A stretch of 39,189 nucleotides of DNA from Blastocatellia bacterium (GTDB lineage Bacteria > Acidobacteriota > Blastocatellia > Pyrinomonadales > Pyrinomonadaceae), in contig JANNON010000320.1 in NCBI GenBank assembly GCA_031399105.1, positions 1-39,189 of the forward strand, written 5' to 3'. The notes below the pieces were generated by a model. The model was not told the DNA's origin, did no database searches, and saw only the letters and a list, made by a program, of their open reading frames with translations. This document shows, piece after piece, positions 3,407 to 34,534 of this stretch. The translations under genes were made by a program, and so were the position numbers. Positions within the stretch are counted from its first letter, which is position 1. The number at the start of each line of letters is the position of its first letter.

Positions 3407-6400
3407 GTGTTCAGAAACCGAGATCACAATCACTCCTCATCCTCTGAAACTGTTCCTCTGAAGAGTCAATCGGTAAGGTCGGATGCGGTTGCTAACAGTG
3501 CGGGTGTGGCGCGCGCACCTTCTATCACGCTGCCCAAAGGTGGTGGGGCGATAAGGGGGGTTGGTGAGAAGTTCGCCGCCAATCCGGTAACCGGGACCGG
3601 ATCTTTGACAGTACCCCTAGCGACCAGCCCGGGCCGGTCAGGCTTTGGCCCACTACTTTCGCTGGCTTACGACTCGGGTGCGGGCAATGGGCCGTTTGGA
3701 TTTGGCTGGAGTCTTTCACTGCCGGCCATTACTCGCAAGACAGACAAAGGACTACCGCAATACCGGGATGCGGAAGAATCTGATGTCTTCATTCTCGCGG
3801 GTGCTGAGGATTTAGTGCCATTTCTTCAGGCAGATGGCAAACGCTTTGAGGATGACACAAGTGCCCCAGGTTATACGATCCATCGCTACTGCCCGCGCAT
3901 TGAGGGACTCTTCGCGCGCATCGAGCGCTGGACCAGGCAGGCGACGGGGGATACTCACTGGCGCTCCATCAGTCGTGACAACATCACCACGATCTACGGT
4001 AAAACGTTGGAGAGTCGCATCAGCGATCCAGTTGATCACCAACGCGTCTTCACCTGGCTAATCTGCGAAAGTTATGACGACAAAGGCAACGCCATCGTTT
4101 ACCGGTACGCGGCGGAGAACGATCAAAACATCGACCGTTCGCTGGTCAACGAGCGGAACCGAAAACGATCAGCCAATCGATACCTGAAGCGCGTTCAGTA
4201 CGGAAATCGCGACTCAAGATTGATCCAGCCCGATTTGACTTCAATGAAATGGCTGTTCGAGGTGGTCTTCGATTACGAGGAGGGCCACTACGAACCGCTG
4301 GCGCCCGACCAGCACTTGGCGGAAGGCGAACAGCATCAGCTCGCCCGAGCGGCCGCATCCTCGGCGCAGCCATGGTCTGTTCGCCCCGACCCGTTCTCGT
4401 CGCATCGTGCAGGATTCGAAGTCAGGACTTATCGACGCTGCCGGCGCGTCCTGATGTTCCATTTATTCGATGAGTTGGGAAGCGAGCCATATCTGGTGCG
4501 TTCCACCGAGTTCGAGTATGCCGACCTCGATTATTCGCAGCCTACTCCAAGCGACGACGAACTGACGCACCGCGGCAGCACGCGCTTCGCATCGTTTATC
4601 AGCCGAGTTATCCAATCGGGCTTCGTGCGTGATGACAACAAACTGGTCCTTGAGCGTAACGGTGTCAGCTATCAGACCTACCTAAAGAAAACCCTGCCGC
4701 CTCTTGAGTTTGAATATAGCAAGGCAAACATCCAGAACGACATCCGCGATATGGATCTCGAGAGCCTGGAAAACTTGCCCGTTGGGTTGGACGGCGCAAA
4801 CTACAAGTGGATTGATCTGGACGGCGAGGGCCTATCCGGAATCCTGACCGAACAAGCGGACGCCTGGTTCTACAAGCTAAACTTTGGCGGGGGCAGATTT
4901 GGACCGCTCAAAGTAGTTGCAACCAAACCTTCTCTCGCCGATTTGCGCAGCGGACGGCAAGAACTCCTGGATCTGGACGGCAACGGACAGTTGAACCTTG
5001 CCAGTTTTGCCGGCCCGAGTCCGGGCTTTTACGAACGAACGCCCGACGAAAACTGGAAACCTTTCAAAGCATTCGCTCAGCTACCCAATATTCGCTGGGA
5101 TGAACCGAATCTGCGTTTCGTGGATCTAAACGGTGATGGTCACGCAGATGTCTTGATCACTGAGAACGAAGTGCTCACCTGGTACCCTTCGTTAGCAGAG
5201 GGCGGCTTTGATTCGGCCCGACACGTCCGCAAGCCTTTTGATGAGGAGCGAGGCCCGCGTTTGGTGTTGGCCGATGGGACTCAATCAGTCTATCTCGCCG
5301 ACATGGGCGGTGATGGTTTGACCGATCTCGTGCGGGTACGGAACGACGAGGTGTGCTACTGGCCCAATCTGGGCTATGGCCGTTTTGGAGCAAAGGTCAC
5401 GATGGACAACGCTCCTCACTTCGACCTGCCCGATCAGTTCAATCAGAATCGCATTCGCCTGGCAGACATCGATGGTTCGGGAACTACCGACATCATCTAT
5501 CTTGGTCGCGACACTGTTCAGCTGTACTTCAATCAGTCCGGCAATCGCTGGAGCTCTCCGCGCAGACTGAGCCAGTTTCCTCATGTGGATAATCTTTCCT
5601 CGGTGACGACTGCGGACTTACTCGGCAACGGCACCGCGTGTCTGGTCTGGTCGTCGCCCTTGCCCGGCGACCTGCGGCGTTCGTTACGGTACATAGACCT
5701 GATGGGCGGGCAGAAGCCTCATCTGTTGATTAAGTCGGTCAACAACCTCGGGGCTGAAACCCAAGTCCACTATGCGGCATCCACGAAGTTTTATCTCGCC
5801 GACAGGCTTGCCGGAAAACCCTGGACTACAAAGATTCCATTCCCGGTCCACGTCGTCGAGCGTGTTGAAACCTACGACCACGTCAGCCGCAACCGCTTTG
5901 TCACCCGCTACGCCTATCACCATGGATACTTCGACGGCGTCGAACGCGAATTTCGCGGATTCGGTATGGTGGAGCAGTGGGATGCGGAGGAGTTCGGGGA
6001 TTACGTTTCCGGCGTGACGGAATTCGAAGGCGGACAGGAGCTCGCCCCGGAGTTTTACCAGCCGCCTGTGCTCACGCGCACGTGGTTTCACACTGGCGCA
6101 TACCTTGACGGTCACAGGATTTTGCATGGGTTGCGAGATGAATATTACTTGCAACAGCAGCAACTTCCCGAAGCTGTACTGCCCGCAAGTCTGGATGCAG
6201 AAGAACTCCGTGAATGCGTGCGGGCGTTGAAAGGCTCGCCACTGCGGATGGAAGTCTACAGCTTCGACGGTACGGCGCACGAGCAGCATCCGTTCACAAT
6301 TGTCGAAAACAATTACGAAGTTCAACTGATTCAACGTCGTGGAGAAGCGAGACACGCGGTCTTGATGCCGCTCGGTCGTGAGTCTGTCACCCTTTACCAC

Positions 6401-9400
6401 GAGCGCAATCCTTCGGACCCGCGAATCGCTCACAGCTTCAGTCTTGAATACGATCTTTACGGCAACCTGCTCAAGTCCGCTTCGGTCGTGTATGGCCGAC
6501 AGACGACCGATACGACGCTGCCGCTCACAGTAATAGAAGATCAGCAGCGCATGTATGTCAGTTACACGGAGAACGATTTCACGACAGACATAGCTTCAAT
6601 AAATCCTACGACGCCATACCGGCTGCGAGTGCCCTACGAGTCGCGCAGTTACGAGATAACGGGCATCCGAACGGCCTTCGACTTGTTTACCTTTGATGAG
6701 ATCAAGAGCCAGATCGCTGGAGCAGAAGCGATTGCGTATGAAATCATCGCCGACGGTGTGACTCAGCAAAAGCGATTACTGTCGCAAGGCCGCATACTCT
6801 TTCTCGACAACAACCTGAACCCCCTGCCGTTAGGACAGAGAGATACTCTTGGACTATCGAGCCAAAGCTTTCAACTAGCACTCACGCCGGAAGTGGTAGC
6901 CGCGCACTACGCGGGCAAAGTAAGCGACGCGGATCTGACCGCAGCCGGTTACGTGCAATTCGCCGGAGATGCGAACTGGTGGATACCGTCCGGGACATCG
7001 ATTTATCCGGCTAATCCACACCAGCATTTTTATATCCCAACTGGCGCGACAGACCCGCTGGGCGTCGAGACGATTGCGACGTTTGATAAGTACGACCTGC
7101 TTAGAGAGAGTGTGCGGATACAACAAGCCGCTTGGAGCGAAGTGACGGCGACCAACGATTACCGCGCGCTCGGCCCGGTGATGATGACCGACCCGAACAA
7201 GAACCGTTCTGCCGTGGAGATAGATGCCTTAGGGCAGGTAGTGAAGTCCGCGGTGATGGGTAAAGAAGGCTCGACGGACGGCGACACGATTGACGATCCG
7301 AGCACGCGAATGGAGTACGAGCTATTCAACTGGATCGAGCATGGCAAACCGAACTTCGTCCATACTTTTACACGCGAGCAACACGGGGCGTCGAACCCAC
7401 GTTGGATGGAGAGTTACGTCTACTCCAATGGCGGCGGCGGCGTCGCCATGGTGAAAGCTCAGGCGCATTCGGGTTTAGCTCTACAGGTGGATGAAGAAGG
7501 CAACGTGTCGGAAGTGTATGCCGATCAGCGCTGGGTCGGTAACGGGCGTACGGTACTGAACAATAAAGGGAAACCAGTCAAACAGTACGAGCCTTACTTC
7601 AGCGTCACGCATGAATATGAAGACGAGCAAGCCTTAAGCGAAATCGGTGTCACGCCTCTCCTCGACTACGACGCATTAGGGCGAAATATTCGCACAATCT
7701 CACCGAACGGGACGCTGGCGCGGGTTGAATTCAACCCGTGGATGCAAAGGGTATTTGACGGAAATGACGCGGTTACCGAAAGCCACTGGTACGCGGAGCG
7801 AGGCAGCCCCAACCCGGCGGAAGAAGCCGAGCCGTTGAACGACCCCGAGCGCCGCGCCGCATGGCTGGCGGCGAAGCACGCAGGTACACCCGGCGTTTTT
7901 CATCTCGACAGCCTCGGGCGACCGGTGTATGGCATCTCGGATTACGGGGGTGGTCTGACTGCGACGGCGCGTACCGAGAGCGATTTGACCGGGCGGTTTT
8001 TCAAAGTCTTCGATCAATTCCAACGTGAGGTAGGCAACGGGTTCAGCAGCATGACCGGCATACCGGTATGGAGCGAGAGCGCGGAAAAGGGTCGCCGGTG
8101 GATGTTTCCGAACGTGCTCGGGGCCGTCGTCAAGGCATGGGATGAACATGGACGGGAGGTGCGGGTCGAGTACGACAACCTGCACCGTCCGCTTAGCACC
8201 TTCGTGAAGGAATCTGGGAAGGCTGAGGTCCTGGTCAACTATTTATTGTACGGAGATCGCCACCCGAACGCCGAACAACTGAACCTGCTCGGTGTCGCGC
8301 ATTTGATTTTCGATCAATCGGGTATGGTCCGCGTGCCTGAGCTTGATTTCAAAGGCAATCCCAAAAGCGCAGAGCGCATCCTGGCGCGAGATTACGAAAA
8401 TTACATAGATTGGACGAAGGTGGCCGGCCAGCCCGACTACAACACCGTTCAAATAGCAGCGGACACGCTCCTTGAAACCAGTGAGGTTTTTACCGCCAGT
8501 TCCGTTTACGATGCGCTGAATCGTCCGACTCGTGTGACGCTGCCTGACGCGACCGTCATCGTGCCGACCTACAACGAGGCGGGCTTCCTGGACACCCTTC
8601 AAGCTCAACCACGTGGACAAGGTGTCGTCATAGAATTCCTGAAAGAGCAGGATTATGACGCTAAAGGCCAGCGACAGTTTGCACGATATGGCAACGATCT
8701 CTATACCAGATACTTTTACGATCCGAAGACCTTCCGTTTGACCCAACTCCTGACCTATCCATCCGGCACTGATCCAGAGACTAACGGCCTGCAGAATTTG
8801 CGGTATACCTACGATCCGGTCGGCAATATCACCCAGGTTCGTGACGACGCACAACAGACTTACTACTTCAATAATGCGGTCGTGAAGCCAGAATCTCGCT
8901 ACGAGTATGACGCTCTTTATCAGCTAGTGCGTGCGACTGGGCGAGAACATGCGGGCGGGATGAACGACGCAATCCGTGATCACGGAGCCCTCTCTGCTCA
9001 TCCACAGTTACCTCATCCAAACCATCTTCAGGCCGTACGAACTTATACCGAAGACTATGAGTATGACGTGCTCGGCAATCTCCAAACGTTGCGGCATCGC
9101 TTCAAAAACCAGGCGGGAATTGGCGCAGGTTGGACGCGCCGTTATCAGTATGCCTATGAGGGTAATGCCGCGAACAGTACCAATCGCTTGAGCGCGACGA
9201 GTGAAACAGGCGACCTGGACGATGGCCCCTACAGCGCAACATACGACCATGACGTCTACGGCAACATGACGCGCATGCCGCACCTGGCCGCGCTTGATTG
9301 GAACTTCATGGACCAGTTGCGGCAAGTCGACCTGGGTGGCGGCGGCACCGCCCACTACGTCTACAACGGAAGCGGGACACGAATACGCAAAGTCATAAAT

Positions 9401-26104: not shown

Positions 26105-26890
26105 ATGTCCCAATTCCAGCGTTACATTGGAATCGATTACTCTGGAGCCGAAACACCGACTTCTTCATTGTCGGGTCTGCGAGTTTACGAGGCCGATCAA
26201 CACCGCCTACCTGATGAAGTGCCGCCACCACCAAGCCCTCGGAAATACTGGACCCGTCGCGGCATTGCTGAATGGCTGCGCGAACAGCTATTGAGGTCCG
26301 AACCAACGATCGTTGGAATTGACCATGCGTTCTCGTTTCCATTGCAGTACTTTGAGATGCACGGATTGCCGTTAGACTGGCCCAGTTTTCTTGAGGACTT
26401 TCGACTCCATTGGCCAACTCATGAAGATCACACCTACGTGGATTTCATTCGTGATGAGTTATGCGGCAATGGACGTGGACGAGCAGGTGATGCATGTTGG
26501 TTCCGATTAACGGAGCGATGGACAGCAGTAGCCAAGTCGGTCTTTCGGTTCGACATCCAAGGCGCAGTCGCAAAGTCGACCCACGCCGGTCTGCCGTGGC
26601 TTCTCTATCTCAGGCAACATGGTGAAGATCGAATTCACTTTTGGCCGTTCGACGGCTGGGATATTCCGACAGGAAAATCGGCTGTCGTTGAGGTGTATCC
26701 TTCGCTCTGGATGCGACGCTTTCCGAATGACGGACAGCGGAACGCGGATCAGCAAGCTGCTTACGCTGTGACGGCTTGGTTACGGCGTGCTGACCGCGAC
26801 GGTTCGCTCACACGTTACTTCCATCCGCCTCTTGACCCAAGTGAGCAATCGGTTGCCCACGTCGAAGGTTGGATTCTTGGAGTAGTATGA
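26105..26890 (+). CDS. Hypothetical protein, possibly RNase-H-like fold (DUF429-like). The assignment is weak.
   Basis: 261-aa ORF. An N-terminal IGIDYSGAE strand motif is followed by IVGIDHAFSFP, VVEVYPSLW, DQQAAYAVTAWL and a terminal EGWILGV. This pattern is reminiscent of DUF429/RNase-H-fold proteins, recalled from memory only. Confidence 0.6.
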   Translation: MSQFQRYIGIDYSGAETPTSSLSGLRVYEADQHRLPDEVPPPPSPRKYWTRRGIAEWLREQLLRSEPTIVGIDHAFSFPLQYFEMHGLPLDWPSFLEDFRLHWPTHEDHTYVDFIRDELCGNGRGRAGDACWFRLTERWTAVAKSVFRFDIQGAVAKSTHAGLPWLLYLRQHGEDRIHFWPFDGWDIPTGKSAVVEVYPSLWMRRFPNDGQRNADQQAAYAVTAWLRRADRDGSLTRYFHPPLDPSEQSVAHVEGWILGVV

Positions 26891-26983
26891 GGTTATGCAG
26901 AGGAATCGCGTCAGTTCTAGAGTATGAAATATCTAGCCGGTATGGTGATTCTTCTTCCGAAGACATGGTGAAGGTACATATTG

Positions 26984-27484
26984 ATGGAAGGACTCGAAAA
27001 GAGAAAGACCCGAGATCCCGTTTCAGAAGTGCGGTTGGAACTGGAAAAGACTGACATACCGCATGATGTCTTACCGAGGGGCGATAAGGGCGAACGTCTG
27101 ATCCTGCCTACTCATGCACGACTCTTAGTTCGTGATGAAGGCCTCAGGGTTGAGATGATCGTTCGAGATCCAGAAGATGAGTATTGGCCGGATTTTGACT
27201 ATGAAAACCCGCCTATTGCGTTTATCCATCTACCCAAAGAGGAAATTCTCCGTCTAATTGTTGGAGGACGACTCTACGGAAGGGGATCATACCCCACCGC
27301 GATTCTTGTTATCAGCGATCCTGGCGACGTAGTAGATTCACTCTCGTTAACATTTGCATCGACAGATCCCAATAACCCTGAATATTGGACTAAGGCACTT
27401 GCAAAGATGTTACGGGAGCGATTAAGCGTCGAAATCGAAGCTGTTAATGAGCCTCCTGACGACGAGCCCTACATCCCTTTCTGA
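26984..27484 (+). CDS. Hypothetical protein with no recognisable motif and an acidic C-terminus.
   Basis: 166-aa ORF counted from the ATG at 26984 (a TTG lies at 26981). GAAGG lies ~10 nt upstream. It is on the same strand as the preceding gene and 93 nt downstream of it. Confidence 0.55.
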   Translation: MEGLEKRKTRDPVSEVRLELEKTDIPHDVLPRGDKGERLILPTHARLLVRDEGLRVEMIVRDPEDEYWPDFDYENPPIAFIHLPKEEILRLIVGGRLYGRGSYPTAILVISDPGDVVDSLSLTFASTDPNNPEYWTKALAKMLRERLSVEIEAVNEPPDDEPYIPF

Positions 27485-27693
27485 GCAACGAGATCAGTGT
27501 CACGGCACACTTGAAGGATTGTATGTTCGGCTGCCCCTTACAAGACTTGCCAAGAACAGGCAATCGCTTCCGAGCGAGTTGGAATAGTTAACAGACTGGG
27601 CTACTTCTTTGAGGCGAGTGTTTGTTAAGACACGCGTGGCTGAAAAACATTACGGGAGAAAGCGCTCTTGAACTCCTCACGTACCAGGCCAGG

Positions 27694-30051
27694 CTAGAAG
27701 GGAGCTGTCCCATCGTCGTCATCGTCACCTGCCGCAAGCGGTTCGACCTCCGCAGGAACCGCTTGTTCCACCACTGCGGGTTGGAGTGGCTCTTCAACCG
27801 CTTTCCATTGCTTATTCAATTCCTCGCTAGCTTTTTTCTTTGCAGGATCTTCTGCGATCTGAAAGATCACAGGACGTTCACTCTTGATGCCCTTGCCAAA
27901 ACCGATCGCTTGAAATCTCTTCAGATTAGGTATGGCTGTCACATGCGTTGTATTGAAAACATTGGCTAAGTATCTGAGGCCAGTTTCATCATACATCGCA
28001 AAGGACAGAACTGTGTTGCACTGCGAAAGCAATGTTTTGCTAACAAGGGCAGTTCTTTGAGAAATCAATAATAAGCCAACTCCATATTTTCGCCCCTGCA
28101 ATGCGATCTGGGCGGTGCGCCCCAAAACCGATTCTGTTTCACTGCGATCATATCGTCCATACACATTCATTTCTGGCACGACGGTGTGAGCTTCCTCCAA
28201 TACGATTAAGACACGGCGCGCACGTCGATACTTTCTCGCCCAATCAAAGATAGATGACAAATACATTTCCGTGATACGAAGAGTTGCACGGCTGTTCGCA
28301 ATGTCGTCAAGCTGAAGTATGCCGAGTGCTGCGTGTTCTGGCTCAAGGAATAATCTCACTTCCTCTTCAATTTTTGGTTTCAATTCATCAATCGCTTCCT
28401 TGAGTGCGGCCTTTTCTTTTCCAGCCGCGAATTCGCCGGTTTCGACATCAAAGATCTTTTGATTAAGTCTCTCAGAATCTTCTTCCTCAAGCCCCATTAT
28501 TTCGGGATTAAGGTCCTTGAGTCGCTGCTCGTATTCAGCAGTCAGATCGACGCAGAAGACCTTAAAACCGCGCTGAAGAGCAAAGCGGATAATATCGTAC
28601 GCAAGCTCGGTCTTTCCTGTGCCAGTTACGCCGAGAATTGCAGTGTGATATTCAGTCAGATCATTCAGATTCGCGCCGATTGCTATCTTGGAGTGTGGAA
28701 GCGTTCCTATAGCAAATTCCTCCTCACCAAGGTTGGTCGTTAGTTCGGTTGATTCGCTCACAAGAAAGACCGGGGAGTTCATTGCGGGAAGCCATCCGTA
28801 CTTCAGAAATCCGCGACTTGAATCGAAAACTCCGAGCTGTTCGGCCGAGGCCAGGTGCCGTCCCAGCGGATTTTGAGAGAAACTCTCCTCATCGGTGGCA
28901 GCATTTATTATTTGGTAATAGATCCTTGCGGGTTTCGAATCCTCGGTCTGCAAGATTGAAACAAGCATACCTTCTCTTAGTGTCGCATTCGAGGAAACTT
29001 CGAACTTGATTTGAGGTATTGTTGAATTCTCAACGACAAATCCAATTAGCTCACCTCCGTCTTCACCACCGCATAGTTCCAGCATCACGTCGGCTTTCTT
29101 TCGGCCAGAAGGGTTCAAAAAAACCTGGCCGGGTTTGGCGCCTTCCATTCTCTCTGCCAGCTCCGAATGGCATATGCCAGTTCCCACCAACTCTGCATCC
29201 TGAGTCTGAACAAACAATGGAAGTACTTCTACATGCTTCGAGTTTGCCAAACACGCCGCATGAAGATTCTCTCGATCCCAACTCTCTGCTGACCTAAGCC
29301 TAACTCTCAAGATACCTGGTGAGTCGATTCGCAGAATTTCACCGATCGATTTGCTTTTTGGATCTTTTGACTTCGCCGCTCGAAAATCGCCAATGAGATG
29401 GAGGACCAACTCAACAGGGCGCAGGAAAATTAGAATTGACCAGGCAAATAACAACCACAGTTGTTGAATCGGCGCGTCCTGATAAAAACCAAGGATTGAA
29501 ATTAGAACAGCCGGCGTGAAGATAATTGCGCCTTGCCCGAATCGTTCCGCAACCCTATAGGTGACCCGCGAGAAATATAAATGTGTCGGACCTGCATCGC
29601 GATCAGTTCGATGCAAGAAAATAGCCGCCACACCGACCACGCTTGTGAGACCTGCGACGCTAAGTGCGAGCCACCTAAATAGATTCAGTTGGGACTGACC
29701 TTGGGCTATCGCAGTCGGGTCGGTTACTCCAAGTTGCAACGCCGCCGCGGCGCTTCTTGCAACCGCATCCCTGGGTTTGACGAAAAATGGCGCGGATAGA
29801 CGAGTGAAAAACCAGAGCGCGATTGAACTAAAAAACCAGAGGCTCTTTCCGCCGCTTGGAGGAATCCACACACCAGTTATGAGTTTACACACGACCAACA
29901 AGGCCGCGATGTAGATCGCGAGCACTAAAACCCGTTCCGGGAGCTTCAGATAATCTTTCACAATTCGTTTCCCCTGTACGAGCGTCAGCAACAGACTCTT
30001 AAAGTTGATCGGAGTAAGGCACGATTGACTGACACTATGCCCAAGGCCCAT
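27694..30051 (-). CDS. Membrane-anchored HerA/FtsK-superfamily ATPase (DUF87-like). It has an N-terminal multi-pass TM domain and two HAS-barrel-like segments.
   Basis: Walker A is AILGVTGTGKTELA (nt ~28611-28640). Walker B is RVLIVLEEAHTVVPE (~28186-28212). The HerA-type C-terminal block is IALQGRKYGVGLLLISQRTALVSKTLLSQCNTVLSF. Hydrophobic segments include VLVLAIYIAALLVVCKLITGV, SLWFFSSIALWFFTRL, WLALSVAGLTSVVGVAAIFL, AIIFTPAVLISILGF and LWLLFAWSILIFL. The tail is acidic (AAGDDDDDG). The ORF is open up to a TTG at 30258, with an ATG at 30204. I prefer the ATG at 30051 because the upstream 69 codons look non-protein-like and would overlap the divergent gene. Confidence 0.85.
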   Translation of the reverse strand: MGLGHSVSQSCLTPINFKSLLLTLVQGKRIVKDYLKLPERVLVLAIYIAALLVVCKLITGVWIPPSGGKSLWFFSSIALWFFTRLSAPFFVKPRDAVARSAAAALQLGVTDPTAIAQGQSQLNLFRWLALSVAGLTSVVGVAAIFLHRTDRDAGPTHLYFSRVTYRVAERFGQGAIIFTPAVLISILGFYQDAPIQQLWLLFAWSILIFLRPVELVLHLIGDFRAAKSKDPKSKSIGEILRIDSPGILRVRLRSAESWDRENLHAACLANSKHVEVLPLFVQTQDAELVGTGICHSELAERMEGAKPGQVFLNPSGRKKADVMLELCGGEDGGELIGFVVENSTIPQIKFEVSSNATLREGMLVSILQTEDSKPARIYYQIINAATDEESFSQNPLGRHLASAEQLGVFDSSRGFLKYGWLPAMNSPVFLVSESTELTTNLGEEEFAIGTLPHSKIAIGANLNDLTEYHTAILGVTGTGKTELAYDIIRFALQRGFKVFCVDLTAEYEQRLKDLNPEIMGLEEEDSERLNQKIFDVETGEFAAGKEKAALKEAIDELKPKIEEEVRLFLEPEHAALGILQLDDIANSRATLRITEMYLSSIFDWARKYRRARRVLIVLEEAHTVVPEMNVYGRYDRSETESVLGRTAQIALQGRKYGVGLLLISQRTALVSKTLLSQCNTVLSFAMYDETGLRYLANVFNTTHVTAIPNLKRFQAIGFGKGIKSERPVIFQIAEDPAKKKASEELNKQWKAVEEPLQPAVVEQAVPAEVEPLAAGDDDDDGTAPF

Positions 30052-30258
30052 TTGCGAGTCAAACCCATTACATTGACCTCTTCGACGACCGCGCCACCGG
30101 TACGAAAATCGCGTTAACGACGGCAACTCGCCAAAATACGCACCTGAAGCCAAGTCCGTGAATGCGGCATAATGGTGTTTCGGTATTAGACTGACACGAC
30201 TCATTATGACCAACGCGGCAAAGGTGTGCACATGTACCGCGATTTGGAGGTTCGACAA

Positions 30259-30789
30259 ATGCTTTTTGGGAATCCAATATTTGAAATAGCGGTCTATCGA
30301 AAATCACCGCGCGAATTAGAGGCTGAATATGACACCGCATTGACGAAGCATCTTCGGTCGTTGGAACCTCAATATCCATTGATCCAAATCGATAGCGCGA
30401 AGTACCAGGGCTTGCGGTTCATTCGCAATCAATTTTGGGAGCAGCACGGTGAGCCATATCCGTATAATCAAGCAGTAGGCTGGGTTGTTCTATTTGCGAT
30501 GCGAGATCAGGTGTTTGCTGAATACTATAAAATCACAGAAAAGAGACTGACTCGAAATTGCAGACGACATCGAGTCAAAGGGCAAGGAAGGTGTTTTGCG
30601 ATTCCTCTTGCCGGGAATGAAACAAGCAAACAGATCATCGCCGAGATCACTGAAGAGTTGCGCCTGCTATCTGCCGAGAGTCCATTCAAAGGACGCTATG
30701 TCGATAGGGCGGCTTTTACACGCATCGCTTCTTATATTAATTGGAGGAAGTTGATCAGAGAGAGTAGTTCGGCTGTTGTCACGTCATGA
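30259..30789 (+). CDS. Hypothetical protein (176 aa). It is the first gene of the plus-strand operon that runs divergent from the HerA-like gene.
   Basis: The ORF is open from a GTG at 30226. The ATG at 30259 is preceded by GGAGG with an 8-nt spacer. I recognise no motif. Confidence 0.65.
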   Translation: MLFGNPIFEIAVYRKSPRELEAEYDTALTKHLRSLEPQYPLIQIDSAKYQGLRFIRNQFWEQHGEPYPYNQAVGWVVLFAMRDQVFAEYYKITEKRLTRNCRRHRVKGQGRCFAIPLAGNETSKQIIAEITEELRLLSAESPFKGRYVDRAAFTRIASYINWRKLIRESSSAVVTS

Positions 30790-30822
30790 CACTCGCACCG
30801 TCGAAAGTAGATGTAATCTCTT

Positions 30823-31367
30823 ATGACTGACAGACCTATTCCACCAGAGCATGAGATTGCCCGTGAAGCACAGCATCAGGTTGAGGGTAAACTGAGACCT
30901 CGCATTCCAACACGCCTTGGTGAAGGCGATGATTATGGCTTGATGCATTTGTACAGCATGTAATTCCCGGTCTCCCGTCAATCAGAACAAATCTGCTATT
31001 TGGTTTACAGGTGAAGGGAAGCGGGAAGGAGTTTGCATCGACTCATAGTGAGACGCTTAGAGTTGCTCATCTTTTGGACTGGCAAACATCACAGACCGAA
31101 GTGATTGTTGCGGTTCATTCAGTTGCCTCAGGTCAAACGCGCTGGCGAGGGTCTCGGGACATAGCACAAGAGCTAGATCTGATACGCCCCGAGTGGAGGA
31201 GCCAGATGACCGTGAACGCTCCCTTTCGTGAAACGGACGAGAGGACCGGAGAGGAACTTCACGGTTGGCTAAGTCGAACCATTGAGCGCGTTGCCGATGC
31301 ATTCGGGCGGCAAGGATCGCCTCCACAGATCGCTACGCTCTGTTCTACTTACAGAGCTTTACCATGA
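30823..31367 (+). pseudogene. DUF4365-like PD-(D/E)xK nuclease-domain gene interrupted by a frameshift near 30938.
   Basis: Frame 1 reads MTDRPIPPEHEIAREAQHQVEGKLRPRIPTRLGEGDDYG and then stops 8 codons later. The frame of ORF 31011-31367 is open from 30933. It continues LDAFVQHVIPGLPSIRTNLLFGLQVKGSGKEF. Joined, this gives DDYG-LDAF...LQVKGS, i.e. the DYGxD...QxK signature. Confidence 0.6.
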
Positions 31368-31443
31368 TTACGCCTGGACCGGTCAGCATGGAGGTTTAGC
31401 TGAGTCACCCGGAGGGCCGGCAGTTGGAAGGTTTGTAACGGGA

Positions 31444-32550
31444 ATGCAGTGGGAGAAAGGGGAGATCGACGATCGGGCGGTACTCGCTTCTCGTGTGCTT
31501 ACGGGAGCACTAATGCTTTTTGAGCAAGTCTTTTTTCCCGCAGAGTTGCTCTATGCGGCCGTAGGCAGTTTGGGCGCGGACCTCTTTGATCAGCTTCTCT
31601 CGAATGAGCGGGTTGTACCAGTCATACTGCCAAGCCAAGATTTGGCATTCGTGACAGGAAGTGAGGAGCGTGGCGACCTCTACTTCTTCGACGTGAATAT
31701 GCTTGAAGTACAAGACCGTGGCCTTTCAGCGATACGGAAGAAGTATGGCCTGACTAGTTCGTTCGCTATGAGGGTCAAACAGGCTACGCGAAAGCTTGAG
31801 TTACCAGACCGAACCACAAAAGAGCTTCTAGAAGTATCCAAGCTGGACTATATCCGCGAACTCGTTGGACTCGGAGCACCACGAGCACAATCGAAGGAAC
31901 CTAGCTGGGCAGCTGAAAGGCTGCTCCGCATTGGGAATGTCGTGAAATTCTACTCGATGGCGGAATTACTTTCCGTCGACATCGTCGAGTTTGAGCCTGG
32001 CCTGGCACGGCTCGCCCTTGCAAGGTGGGGCAGCCACGTGCGCTTCCATCGCCTCTATCAAGCACTCGATGAACTTGAAGCGACGCTACGCGCCTCCGCT
32101 CTTCCTGACATGGGTCTATTGGCGGCTCAAATCGGAGTACGCCGATGCGTGGAGATCTCCGAATCCAAGGAAGGTGAAGACCTTCGGTCATGGTTTTGGA
32201 AGGCTGCCGGCGAGTCAATCTCAAAGACAGGCACTTTTGAAAACGAGGTCGCCAAGGCCATTAGATCCCTGTGTAATTCAGACATCCCGTTACCAGCGGA
32301 ATTTCTTATTGGTTTGAGTGCCGAAAGCGGCTCAACGGCTGAGGGCTGGGCTTCGAGAACCGGAGGAAAACTTGCGTTACAGAGGCAGAAGCAATTCAGC
32401 GCAAAGCGGCTCCGCCGCGAATTGCAAAAGAGGCGCATTCCTGAACCCGCCTTATTGGATCCCTGCATCTGCGATAGCGGGTTGACGTTCGCTTCTTGTT
32501 GCGCAAAGGTATTTGATAACGAGGCGTACCGAACCGGCACCTCGGAATGA
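31444..32550 (+). CDS. Hypothetical protein with a C-terminal SEC-C-type Cys motif.
   Basis: The ORF is open from 31273, with a TTG at 31282 and an ATG at 31297. The first start after the upstream stop is the ATG at 31444. The C-terminus DPCICDSGLTFASCCAKVF matches the CxC-SG-x5-CC SEC-C metal-binding pattern. The 5' end is uncertain. Confidence 0.7.
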   Translation: MQWEKGEIDDRAVLASRVLTGALMLFEQVFFPAELLYAAVGSLGADLFDQLLSNERVVPVILPSQDLAFVTGSEERGDLYFFDVNMLEVQDRGLSAIRKKYGLTSSFAMRVKQATRKLELPDRTTKELLEVSKLDYIRELVGLGAPRAQSKEPSWAAERLLRIGNVVKFYSMAELLSVDIVEFEPGLARLALARWGSHVRFHRLYQALDELEATLRASALPDMGLLAAQIGVRRCVEISESKEGEDLRSWFWKAAGESISKTGTFENEVAKAIRSLCNSDIPLPAEFLIGLSAESGSTAEGWASRTGGKLALQRQKQFSAKRLRRELQKRRIPEPALLDPCICDSGLTFASCCAKVFDNEAYRTGTSE

Positions 32551-32604
32551 TGGGGTGACTTGGCTTTCCTTCCAACACCGGTCGATGAGGATCTACGTGG
32601 AAAA

Positions 32605-33321
32605 ATGAGCAACGACGACTCGGTTAACTTAGATGAAGTTATTGTTACCGGATTAGAGCCTCGAACTTGGTACGCATTTGTCCAGGGTCAGCTTGAGCTA
32701 CTGCGCGGTCATGTTCAAGAACGGGAGCAGCAAATTGATGAATCCGTAAAGGCTTATGAAAAGGGGAGAAGGGGTACGGATGTCGAACAGAGTGATGATG
32801 GGTATCCAATTGTAATCCTGGAAGAATATAGCGGAATTGAAGGTCCCCCCAATGAGCTAGAGGACATTTTCAAATACTATTATCCAAATCTACAACGGCG
32901 AAGCATTTTGATTGTCTTGTTTTCATTTTTGGAACATCAGCTAGATCAACTGTGCCAGCTATTTGCCAAGGAGCAACGGTTAAAGATCATTCACACAGAT
33001 TTGAGGGGCAAAGGTATTGATCGGACGCGCCTCTATTTACAAAAGGTCATAGGTTTACGCCTCGATGGTTCTCACGTATGGCAGGAAATCAAGCGAATTC
33101 AAAAAGTAAGAAATGTAATTGTGCACAACGATGCGAAGTTGGCCGGTGCCGACAAAGACCTCACCGAATACGTCCAAAGAACAACTGGGCTGTCTCGAGT
33201 TAGCAACTCGTACTATGACGGCGACATGGATGAAGTCGACATTCTGGATGGATATTTGCTTCACGTGCTTGAGACAATTGATTCGTATTGCGGTGAAGTG
33301 AATAAGGAAATCACGTCGTAG
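32605..33321 (+). CDS. HEPN-superfamily protein (predicted RNase) with an Rx4H motif.
   Basis: 238 aa counted from the ATG at 32605; the ORF is open from a TTG at 32560. The C-terminal helical domain is RRSILIVLFSFLEHQLDQLC...WQEIKRIQKVRNVIVHNDAKL. It contains R-N-V-I-V-H (Rx4H) in the context typical of Abi/RiboL-PSP-type HEPN domains. Confidence 0.7.
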   Translation: MSNDDSVNLDEVIVTGLEPRTWYAFVQGQLELLRGHVQEREQQIDESVKAYEKGRRGTDVEQSDDGYPIVILEEYSGIEGPPNELEDIFKYYYPNLQRRSILIVLFSFLEHQLDQLCQLFAKEQRLKIIHTDLRGKGIDRTRLYLQKVIGLRLDGSHVWQEIKRIQKVRNVIVHNDAKLAGADKDLTEYVQRTTGLSRVSNSYYDGDMDEVDILDGYLLHVLETIDSYCGEVNKEITS

Positions 33322-33322
33322 A

Positions 33323-34393
33323 CTATCGTATCGCCTCGACATTCGCCCTGAGCTTATTTGCTAACTCGCCAAACGTAAGAGCATCTCGCGGCTCGGGTGT
33401 TTGGAGGTTCCCGCCAAAGGTCACGGAAAAGTGCCATTTCTTTAATGAGAAGAAACTCTCTCTGTCTGATTCACTCAGTTTTCCCATTTGAAACAGGGCA
33501 TTGGCAACTTCACTTGGATTGTCGCCCTCCCCCGTTTGCATTAACAATTGGTTCCTCGTTCCGGCGTCGAGAATGGCTCTGACAAGTTCGTTCCACTTCT
33601 CGGTTATTGCCTGACGAGGCGACAGTGTGGCAAGTTCACGGAACTGGTCATCAGCACGATCCTGGCTTCGCCGTATGACACCTCCTGTGATTACCTCCAA
33701 GAGACCATCGACCACAGTTTGAATTCCGTCGCTCCATTTGAGCGCCACCACGTCAGCTAAAAGCAAAAACTGATCCCGAACGTCCTCTAAGTTAACATCG
33801 TACCAAACCGGAAGGATTACTTTCTGGCTTGCGCTCTGTTTTTGAGCGAGCGCTTGTAGTTCACGTTTGGGCCAGTCCTTTCGAAAGAATGCGGGCGATA
33901 GTATGACAACGCCAAACTTAGATTTGCGTAGCCCAAGATCGATTGAAGACATTAACGAGTCTCCAACCTTCAAGGCGAAAGTGTCATACCACACCGATAG
34001 TCCCGCTTTCATGAGAGCCCTAGAGAGCGGTTCTGCGACTGCTTCTTTGTCTTCCGTAGCGTGCGAGATAAAAACATCCCACGACTGGAAATCGGCACTG
34101 TTGACGTCGGGCGGCTGCAAAGCGGGAGTCGTGACAGTTTGAGAAAGGTGTGAGTGGATTTTCAGAATATAGTCCATATCCGCCAACAAAGTTCTAAGGT
34201 AACGACTTGGAATATGGCCTTTGATTAATCCATTCCCTGTGTCGGTTGGGACGCCAGGGAGTTCGCGTACTGGTAAGTCAGCAAACAGCTCTGGATCAAT
34301 TAGCCTGAATTCATCGCGTAGCGCGGCATATCGGTTAAAGAATTCCAGAGTAAGGTCAGCGCTGTAATGCAAATCAGACCAATCGAAACTCAC
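33323..34393 (-). CDS. TIR-domain protein with unknown flanking domains. The ORF as drawn starts at a GTG, but the frame is open for 47 more codons up to an in-frame TAG.
   Basis: The TIR core is WDVFISHATEDKEAVAEPLSRALMKAGLSVWYDTFALKVGDSLMSSIDLGLRKSKFGVVILSPAFFRKDWPKRELQAL...VILPVWYDV. It includes the W..E catalytic-Glu context. GGAGA lies 5 nt upstream of the GTG. Confidence 0.85.
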   Translation of the reverse strand: MSFDWSDLHYSADLTLEFFNRYAALRDEFRLIDPELFADLPVRELPGVPTDTGNGLIKGHIPSRYLRTLLADMDYILKIHSHLSQTVTTPALQPPDVNSADFQSWDVFISHATEDKEAVAEPLSRALMKAGLSVWYDTFALKVGDSLMSSIDLGLRKSKFGVVILSPAFFRKDWPKRELQALAQKQSASQKVILPVWYDVNLEDVRDQFLLLADVVALKWSDGIQTVVDGLLEVITGGVIRRSQDRADDQFRELATLSPRQAITEKWNELVRAILDAGTRNQLLMQTGEGDNPSEVANALFQMGKLSESDRESFFSLKKWHFSVTFGGNLQTPEPRDALTFGELANKLRANVEAIR

Positions 34394-34534
34394 GGCGTCT
34401 CCGACTTGATCTCTTAGGGCTGATAACTTTGCGAGCGCACGTTTTCGATTGGTTGCCGCTGTAGCTTGGGACGCGACTGAGCCCTTTTCCGCCAGCCAGT
34501 TTAGCCGCCGACGGACCAGAGCTAAGTGGGAGAC

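Follow-up and report, generated by a model that had tools for sequence, protein, structure and literature searches.

The 39,189-nt contig JANNON010000320.1 of a Blastocatellia bacterium (assembly GCA_031399105.1; Acidobacteriota, Pyrinomonadaceae), referred to in its whole length as the window, carries on its minus strand a gene, here called membrane HerA, whose product joins a HerA-type ATPase to a predicted N-terminal membrane module. From N- to C-terminus, the structural model shows the membrane module, an extra beta-barrel, the HAS-barrel, the RecA ATPase and a disordered acidic tail. The gene is cargo of a mobile defence island at a tRNA-Ala gene and, judged from its sequence, membrane HerA is a good candidate for a one-protein defence acting on invading DNA at the membrane. 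The features of the gene and of its convergent neighbour are the following.

27694..29961, minus strand: coding sequence of the membrane HerA ATPase, 755 residues (probable GTG start at 29961; stop codon at 27694-27696)
29962..30258, minus strand: 5' leader and shared intergenic region, probably untranslated (homologues show no similarity there)
29362..29961, minus strand: predicted N-terminal membrane module, residues 1-200, eight predicted helices (hydropathy, positive-inside pattern, AlphaFold2 predicted local distance difference test, pLDDT, 88.7)
29107..29349, minus strand: extra beta-barrel 1, residues 205-285, the segment starting IGEILRIDSPGILRVRL (AlphaFold2 strands at 205-282)
28762..29052, minus strand: beta-barrel 2, the true HerA HAS-barrel, residues 304-400 (AlphaFold2 and PDB alignments)
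27817..28719, minus strand: RecA-type HerA ATPase with helical insert, residues 415-715 (Pfam, PADLOC, NCBIfam, Foldseek)
28606-28635, minus strand: Walker A, LGVTGTGKTE, residues 443-452 (invariant in 115 sequences)
28186-28212, minus strand: Walker B, LIVLEEAH (invariant in 115 sequences)
28081-28098, minus strand: beginning of the QGRKYG...SQRT block (invariant in 115 sequences)
27697..27816, minus strand: disordered acidic tail, residues 716-755, ending DDDDDGTAPF (pLDDT below 50 from residue 732)
26984-27484, plus strand: convergent open reading frame (ORF) of 166 residues ending DDEPYIPF, a lineage-restricted accessory partner, tail-to-tail with membrane HerA

The ORF listing gives at 27694-30258 of the minus strand a frame of 854 codons with a TTG start, which the original prediction took as coding throughout. 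The frame is real, but its first 99 codons are almost certainly not translated and probably belong to the leader, and the coding sequence most likely begins at GTG 29961, yielding a protein of 755 rather than 854 residues. This start is preferred because full-length homologues (715-761 residues) align from GTG 29961 over 95-100% of the 755-residue protein, because an AGGGGA Shine-Dalgarno-like motif is located 8 nt upstream of this codon, because homologues show no similarity upstream of residue 1, so that the 99-codon extension has no counterpart in any of them, and because the 854-codon version would overlap the 5' end of the divergent gene. A sigma-70-like site lies within the leader at 30062-30034; the scan of the gene flanks for promoters and terminators was no better than chance.

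The motor belongs to the HerA clade, in agreement with its initial description as a DUF87/HerA-type ATPase. Pfam DUF87 (PF01935, the HerA central domain), which is carried by all listed homologues, is matched with 41.1 bits against a cut-off of 23.2 (E 2.8e-10), and PADLOC HerA models match the ATPase half with E values down to 8e-26. The top NCBIfam matches are two models of the anti-phage-associated helicase HerA (HerA_antiphage, E 1.7e-21, 76 bits vs 800; HerA_antiphage_2, 63 vs 850), followed by CedD and archaeal HerA, all of them far below the equivalog cut-offs. Moreover, a PDB search with the profile of 115 family members retrieves HerA chains only (9c1m, 8wiv, 8xau, 8ziq, 8yho, 9x1l, 4d2i, 8j4u). 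The AlphaFold2 model of the 755-residue protein, built on the 115-member alignment, is confident (pLDDT 86.3; predicted template modelling score 0.71), and Foldseek relates it to solved HerAs only, with 4d2i as the best match (E 3.1e-20) and a probability of 1.0 for 8xau, 8zis, 8wld and 9x1m. The model lays out eight helices at residues 7-198, two barrels at 205-282 and 304-400, the RecA ATPase with its helical insert at 415-715 and disorder from residue 732. Residues G444, G447, G449, K450, T451, E589, E590, R624, K625, Q635 and R636 are invariant in the 115 sequences and, since Walker A, Walker B and the GRKYG/SQRT block are all maintained, the ATPase should be catalytically active. No model in Pfam, NCBIfam or PADLOC covers the full architecture; in PADLOC-DB v2.0, the HerA and mad8 models match the ATPase half partially and leave residues 1-400 uncovered.

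The ATPase is preceded by two consecutive beta-rich segments that had been read as duplicated HAS-barrels. Both barrels are indeed modelled (pLDDT 86), but the HAS-barrel of solved HerAs has its counterpart in barrel 2 only, which aligns with the HAS-barrel and Walker A region of the antiphage HerAs 9c1m and 8wiv. The hhalign comparison of the profiles of barrels 1 and 2 is not significant (probability 1.5%, E 0.034) and the sequence of barrel 1 has no match in a PDB search; hence a duplicated HAS-barrel is not demonstrated.

The assignment of residues 1-200 to the membrane derives from hydropathy, the positive-inside pattern over the 115 family members and the predicted helices. In a combined Kyte-Doolittle and free-energy scan, in which the insertion free energies (Hessa scale) are approximate, residues 11-29 and 98-116 are strongly hydrophobic, with values below 0 kcal/mol, and residues 43-61, 141-159 and 168-186 are marginally so, with values of 3.3-4.4 kcal/mol, and elsewhere in the protein, over 550 residues, the scan does not fall below 7.4 kcal/mol. 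The loop at 119-143 is strongly basic across the family (mean K+R 4.2), as is the stretch past residue 180. Such a pattern is compatible with a cytoplasmic motor and an N-in/C-in module that comprises two full spans plus two short helical hairpins. The N-terminal region is thus predicted to be transmembrane, as the original prediction supposed; its hydrophobic character stands, but the proposed domain of about 250 residues with five hydrophobic helices is better described as a module of about 200 residues and eight helices, with two strong and three marginal segments.

Identity to the 40 most distant members is about 34% in the module and 54% in the ATPase. Within the module, W42, P63, R96 and P182 are invariant and an SAPFFxPPRD motif is nearly so, and this conservation is more than a passive anchor requires. 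Modelled alone in AlphaFold2, the module is confident (pLDDT 88.7), and Foldseek searches of PDB (best E 0.26) and BFVD (best E 0.18) retrieve no structural relative. A HMMER search with the module alone recovers 248 representative clusters, with the match at the N-terminus or within about 100 residues of it; in this representative search, the module is not found in other architectures and occurs at the N-terminus of the membrane HerA family only. The complete module-bearing proteins measure about 700-760 residues, and most shorter matches, which align collinearly with the family over their whole length, are probably gene fragments. An unaligned C-terminal stretch is present in about 36 shorter matches; the seven that were scanned contain no clear alternative domain and one weak histidine-phosphatase match. 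One module-bearing protein of 1273 residues carries an unassigned C-terminal extension.

At the opposite end, the protein terminates in the Asp-rich tail noticed initially, whose last residues (DDDDDGTAPF) resemble the SSB C-terminal tip. The SSB tip motif is DDDIPF (PMC5872125). An acidic run followed by [IVM]PF closes 30 of the 194 full-length members, across the identity range of the family (e.g., DDDDIPF, EDYDDIPF, NEDDIPF), whereas in other members the last residues are an acidic run plus F. Several alphaproteobacterial members terminate in GP[KR]IT.[LF]. The presence of clade-specific terminal motifs on a disordered tail suggests, by inference only, a role in docking or auto-inhibition. 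A similar acidic, -PF ending (DDEPYIPF) closes the 166-residue product of the convergent ORF, which sits 209 bp past the membrane HerA stop codon, so that, contrary to the initial statement, the divergent operon is not the only close neighbour of the gene. This ORF has no match in Pfam, NCBIfam, PADLOC or PDB, and among 5.8 billion proteins its family is represented by four clusters only. It is the sole neighbour that recurs with homologues of the window gene, lying tail-to-tail with membrane HerA in all three contigs that bear it (window 26984-27484, plus strand; contig L091, 8001-8498; contig L092, 2706-3206), with different outer flanks; the membrane HerA of L091 is 81% identical to that of the window. 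Conversely, membrane HerAs that are 91%, 79% and 78% identical lack the 166-residue ORF, which is therefore a lineage-restricted accessory and no obligate partner.

Membrane HerA lies within a 15.1-kb integrated island, which is defined by a tRNA-Ala gene, 50-nt att repeats and a tyrosine integrase and encompasses every defence gene of the window. The gene content of the island, as listed below, supports the initial view of a HerA-clade motor with its own membrane module in a defence context, together with the profile matches and the hydropathy.

37387-37462, minus strand: tRNA-Ala gene (Rfam; the only Rfam match in 22000-39189)
36299-37372, plus strand: tyrosine integrase (NCBIfam)
22303-22352 and 37386-37435: 50-nt direct repeat of the tRNA-Ala 3' half, 88% identical
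22672-24255, plus strand: DRT8-type defence reverse transcriptase (PADLOC, E 1.6e-113)
24409-26036, plus strand: AbiEi (DUF6088)/AbiEii toxin-antitoxin pair, after DRT8
30259-33321, plus strand: divergent three-gene operon, coding for proteins of 176/187, 422 and 253 residues
33323-34393, minus strand: TIR protein, PDC-S66/ThsB-like (PADLOC), 3.4 kb upstream of membrane HerA on the same strand

The cargo comprises the DRT8 reverse transcriptase, AbiEi/AbiEii, two ORFs that have no assignment, membrane HerA, the divergent operon and the TIR protein. The ORF listing contains no same-strand partner gene for membrane HerA, in line with the original prediction; between the TIR gene and membrane HerA lie three genes of the plus strand. 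The window TIR protein is 51% identical, in its TIR domain, to a TIR protein (9230-10000) of the homologue locus L085, whose adjoining HerA is 44% identical to that of the window; the TIR and HerA genes of the window could be the remnant of a TIR-HerA pair or could simply reside in the same island. The divergent operon matches none of the catalogued systems and, with a C-terminal SEC-C motif in the 422-residue protein and a weak HEPN-like (RTasHEPN) match in the 253-residue protein, is a candidate defence cassette in its own right. As to the remainder of the window, a small ORF at 35963-36199 has the appearance of a candidate excisionase-type helix-turn-helix (HTH) protein, an exact 18-nt repeat, AGTGACGAATCGGTGACA, lies just inside both island ends (22493-22510 and 37322-37339) and two 25-nt repeats of the AGTTTCGAGTTTC type flank the tRNA gene on one side, at 37479-37546. 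Just outside the island, two giant genes for Tc-toxin components lie on the plus strand: 3407-11095 codes for a TcB/TcC-like protein of 2562 residues with SpvB and TcdB mid domains, and 11163-21923 for a TcA-like protein of 3586 residues with VRP1, PA14, neuraminidase-like and TcA_TcB_BD domains.

The distribution of the family was scanned in one genome per species (185,579 species), and at least 319 loci with the same full-length architecture are confirmed. Eighty retrieved loci belong to Verrucomicrobiota, Planctomycetota, Alpha-, Gamma- and Deltaproteobacteria, Chloroflexota, Acidobacteriota, Gemmatimonadota, Firmicutes, Spirochaetota, Ignavibacteria, Cloacimonadota, Actinomycetes and several lineages of the candidate phyla radiation (CPR); 82 loci were ORF-called and clustered, and about 90 homologue loci were inspected overall. 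The family is widespread yet sporadic, with relatives on 9 of 72,556 plasmids and none in 50,697 phage records. Public annotation gives its members the names "DUF87 domain-containing protein" and "ATP-binding protein". Cultured carriers include Marinobacterium sedimentorum OS208, Microbulbifer hainanensis, Ruegeria sp. R13_0, Bradyrhizobium spp. and Flexilinea flocculi TC1. Among the homologues there are several split or truncated copies, including L090 on plasmid p155_2 of Bradyrhizobium sp. 155, whose annotation lists a DUF87 protein and a hypothetical protein, those of other Bradyrhizobium plasmids, and L064, L076 and L078; these copies fit the frequent decay of an accessory gene.

Clustering of the neighbours in the 82 loci reveals no conserved partner: each neighbour family is limited to 8 loci at most, and the genes directly next to membrane HerA, on either side, hardly ever coincide between loci. 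On the contigs of the closest homologues (91%, 79%, 78%, 65% and 63% identity), the neighbours are other than those of the window, and none of the proteins flanking the window gene is found at homologue loci, apart from the 166-residue ORF in contigs L091 and L092. The 146 nearest neighbours, as scanned in batches, are heterogeneous and rich in type I/II restriction-modification (RM) methylases and specificity subunits, M78-peptidase/HTH (capP-like) regulators, TIR, SIR2, transposases and integrases, beside some housekeeping genes. The defence and mobile genes typical of the neighbourhoods include RM, CBASS, DRT, AbiE, PDC-S65 SIR2, PDC-S66 TIR, bSEFIR and integrases. Specifically, the annotated contexts feature CBASS-like genes, DpnII/MboI, TIR with DUF5131, Abi_C plus TIR on an element with MobA/MobL and its own type IV secretion system (T4SS) coupling protein, a Bradyrhizobium plasmid that encodes a restriction enzyme, an Abi protein, Fic and NERD, and a reverse transcriptase, Fic and a PD-T4-6-like kinase at another homologue. 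AddAB-like pairs (UvrD plus PD-(D/E)XK) stand directly beside membrane HerA in at least four loci (L011, L018, L042 of Hyphomicrobiales and the P0007 contig), an adjacency that may reflect lineage synteny or a connection with DNA-end processing.

In about a quarter of the loci, a gene of the same strand follows or precedes membrane HerA at tight spacing, but its identity varies between loci. A DUF1883-TIR gene abuts the start codon of membrane HerA in L085 and L086, and in two Bradyrhizobium loci, the only 2 of about 90 with an abutting SIR2, a SIR2 gene (PDC-S65) and the stop codon share 4 bp. Downstream of the stop codon, L054 has a PLD nuclease gene at a distance of 16 bp and L082 a bSEFIR gene at 108 bp. 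The effector-like neighbours all fall in families entered in PADLOC as single-gene candidates or systems (PDC-S66, PDC-S65, bSEFIR) and may therefore be island neighbours rather than subunits. The qualification of the gene as an orphan thus holds as far as an obligate effector gene is concerned, but does not extend to the 166-residue partner in the sub-lineage of the window or to the few members that abut TIR, SIR2 or PLD genes.

The one role known for HerA rings in defence is that of a partner by which a separate SIR2 or DUF4297 effector is assembled and activated. With SIR2-HerA (Nezha) and DUF4297-HerA, membrane HerA shares the HAS-barrel, the RecA core, the helical insert and the location in defence islands, and the antiphage HerAs of these systems provide the best-scoring profiles and structures (9c1m, 8wiv, 8xau, 8zis). 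In contrast to them, the window gene has no adjacent, co-oriented SIR2 or DUF4297 effector gene, its product is predicted to be an integral membrane protein and scores 76 bits, far below the family cut-off of 800, and about 300 extra N-terminal residues (membrane module and second barrel) are present on the effector-docking face. The N-terminal barrel layer is where the partner docks, in HerA-NurA as in SIR2-HerA (PMC11472057). The HerA-NurA systems of archaea, Deinococcus and Thermus have the fold in common with membrane HerA (S. solfataricus HerA 4d2i, Foldseek E 3e-20) and, by analogy, would share the logic of a hexameric double-stranded DNA translocase; in contrast to them, no NurA gene is present in the window or at the homologue loci, the protein is predicted to be membrane-embedded, and its spread is that of a sporadic accessory gene rather than of a repair operon. 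Membrane HerA is best classed as a putative variant of HerA-based defence, a stand-alone HerA with a fused membrane module of unmatched fold.

Outside the HerA clade, FtsK/SpoIIIE, TrwB/VirD4 and Streptomyces TraB have in common with membrane HerA that a ring motor, from the same superfamily, comes after an N-terminal transmembrane segment, and they are a precedent for a motor coaxial with a membrane assembly. The characterised membrane-integrated members of the FtsK-HerA superfamily that we know of (FtsK/SpoIIIE, TrwB/VirD4, TraB, CedB, EssC) are all substrate translocases. Unlike these, membrane HerA is of the HerA clade, with a HAS-barrel and a different, unmatched membrane fold; FtsK_SpoIIIE (PF01580), the gamma DNA-recognition domain and T4SS-DNA_transf are not among the Pfam matches of the window protein, TrwB_AAD_bind reaches 17.9 bits against a cut-off of 20.5 in the Walker A region only, and no T4SS, relaxase or division context stands out in the 82 loci. 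The HerA models score far better than these transfer families, all below cut-off, so that the suggested comparison with HerA, FtsK, VirD4 and TraG families comes out on the side of HerA. CedB/CedD and Thermus TdtA are HerA-like motors that act on DNA at the membrane. CedD is the third-best NCBIfam match (E 5.5e-13), with 48 bits vs 600 and in the P-loop region only, and CedB scores 18 vs 700; the Ced system requires separate membrane proteins, whereas the window family is bacterial and stand-alone. TdtA, a membrane-associated HerA required for DNA donation (PMC5365140), has no transmembrane segment and acts with NurA and a restriction enzyme in an operon.

The mechanism that we tentatively favour is that of an autonomous, membrane-docked HerA motor that takes hold of invading DNA close to where it enters and drives it to the membrane module or through it. 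To our knowledge, the solved HerAs are all hexameric, and by analogy membrane HerA would form a hexamer, in which the barrel face that elsewhere binds NurA, SIR2 or DUF4297 would instead be fused, via the second barrel ring, to six membrane modules. As the barrel layer continues into the membrane module, the ring axis would be perpendicular to the inner membrane and the six modules coaxial with it. The motor would load on the invading DNA near the entry site, and ATP hydrolysis would thread the DNA toward the membrane module, serving as a conduit or gate; the foreign DNA would then be immobilised or expelled, and a gate left open may cause a membrane leak by which infection aborts. The SSB-like tail and the 166-residue partner may act as lineage-specific regulators or docking elements. 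A bolder form of this mechanism, in which an ATP-driven conduit of new fold captures injected phage or plasmid DNA and pumps it out or blocks its entry, with the SSB-tip mimic plugging the channel or borrowing SSB-binding enzymes, is unlikely. Several points tell against the favoured mechanism. Sequence analysis does not separate DNA passage from ion leak; TIR, SIR2 or PLD genes abut a few members, and there the membrane module is therefore not the sole effector; two contexts resemble housekeeping regions, with no recognisable defence gene nearby; the association with defence genes is a qualitative judgement; and full-text literature searches return no description of the membrane HerA family. 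A close rival of the DNA motor, although itself somewhat unlikely, is an abortive-infection pore, in which the ring would sense foreign DNA and an ATP-driven change would open the six-fold module as an ion leak, so that no DNA crosses and depolarisation kills or arrests the infected cell. Fused transmembrane effectors recur in CBASS, Pycsar and retron systems instead of an NADase or nuclease; the membrane module sits where the SIR2 or DUF4297 effector sits in solved HerA complexes, and the gene is autonomous and located in defence islands, all of which is consistent with such a pore. Conversely, the module is large and well conserved, with about 200 residues and eight helices, whereas the small transmembrane segments of effectors are typically poorly conserved; moreover, it persists where a TIR or SIR2 gene abuts membrane HerA, the extra barrel ring has the look of a lengthened conduit, and no pore-former fold is matched in PDB or BFVD.

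Alternatively, the protein may be a membrane sensor or scaffold that acts via separate factors, for which the PDC-S66-type TIR (33323-34393), host nucleases or helicases recruited by the -PF tail and the convergent 166-residue protein are candidates. This role, also improbable, would account for the TIR gene (51% identical in the TIR domain) that abuts the start codon of the homologue P0098, for the SIR2 overlap in two Bradyrhizobium loci, the PLD in L054 and the bSEFIR in L082, for the SSB-like tip in 30 of 194 members and for the 166-residue ORF adjoining HerA in 3 of 3 contigs; it is countered by the presence of such partners in only about 5 of 90 loci and in PADLOC single-gene families that may be mere island neighbours, by the three plus-strand genes that part the window TIR from HerA, by a 91% identical HerA that does without the 166-residue gene and by the majority of members, which have neither the tail motif nor a partner. 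It is very unlikely that membrane HerA is a DNA transfer or uptake device of a mobile element, similar to a coupling protein, TraB, TdtA or CedB, which would pump element or host DNA. A membrane anchor on a motor of the FtsK-HerA superfamily, weak matches at P-loop level to TrwB_AAD_bind, TraC, VirB4 and CedB/CedD, the siting on an integrated island and on a few conjugative plasmids and the precedent of TdtA, a membrane-associated HerA for DNA donation (PMC5365140), point in this direction, but all matches to transfer families are sub-cut-off and confined to the Walker A region, far behind the HerA models, the protein has no DNA-recognition domain, and the family occurs on 9 of 72,556 plasmids and on no phage and is not consistently associated with integrases. 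Of about 90 loci, 1 has T4SS or relaxase genes nearby, and this locus carries its own coupling protein; the homologues do not sit in conjugative T4SS or integrative and conjugative element (ICE) transfer modules, the siting by which the original prediction would have yielded to a coupling protein. With matches below cut-off at the P-loop and no conserved T4SS neighbours, the identity as a coupling protein or part of an ICE transfer module is rejected. Lastly, the initial suggestion that the protein serves the divergent operon (30259-33321) as its sensor or motor is extremely improbable. Proximity and the shared intergenic region of about 300 bp are what speaks for it; the proteins of 187/176, 422 and 253 residues, i.e., the 176-residue/DUF4365/SEC-C/HEPN set of which the original prediction asked whether it is retained near homologues, have no relative in about 90 homologue loci, including those of 78-91% identical homologues and the two contigs that keep the 166-residue partner. 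With no operon gene near homologues, this idea is therefore not supported, and the operon as a partner is effectively refuted by the lack of co-occurrence.

The membrane HerA family appears to swap the separate effector of HerA-based defence for a built-in, conserved membrane module of unmatched fold, and has spread as a single gene through the defence islands of many phyla, CPR bacteria included. If it proves protective, it would add a compact one-gene system to HerA-based defence and would offer a tractable model of a DNA motor coupled to the membrane, working via DNA expulsion or a gated pore, for which the SSB-like tail and the small tail-to-tail partner would be testable handles on regulation.

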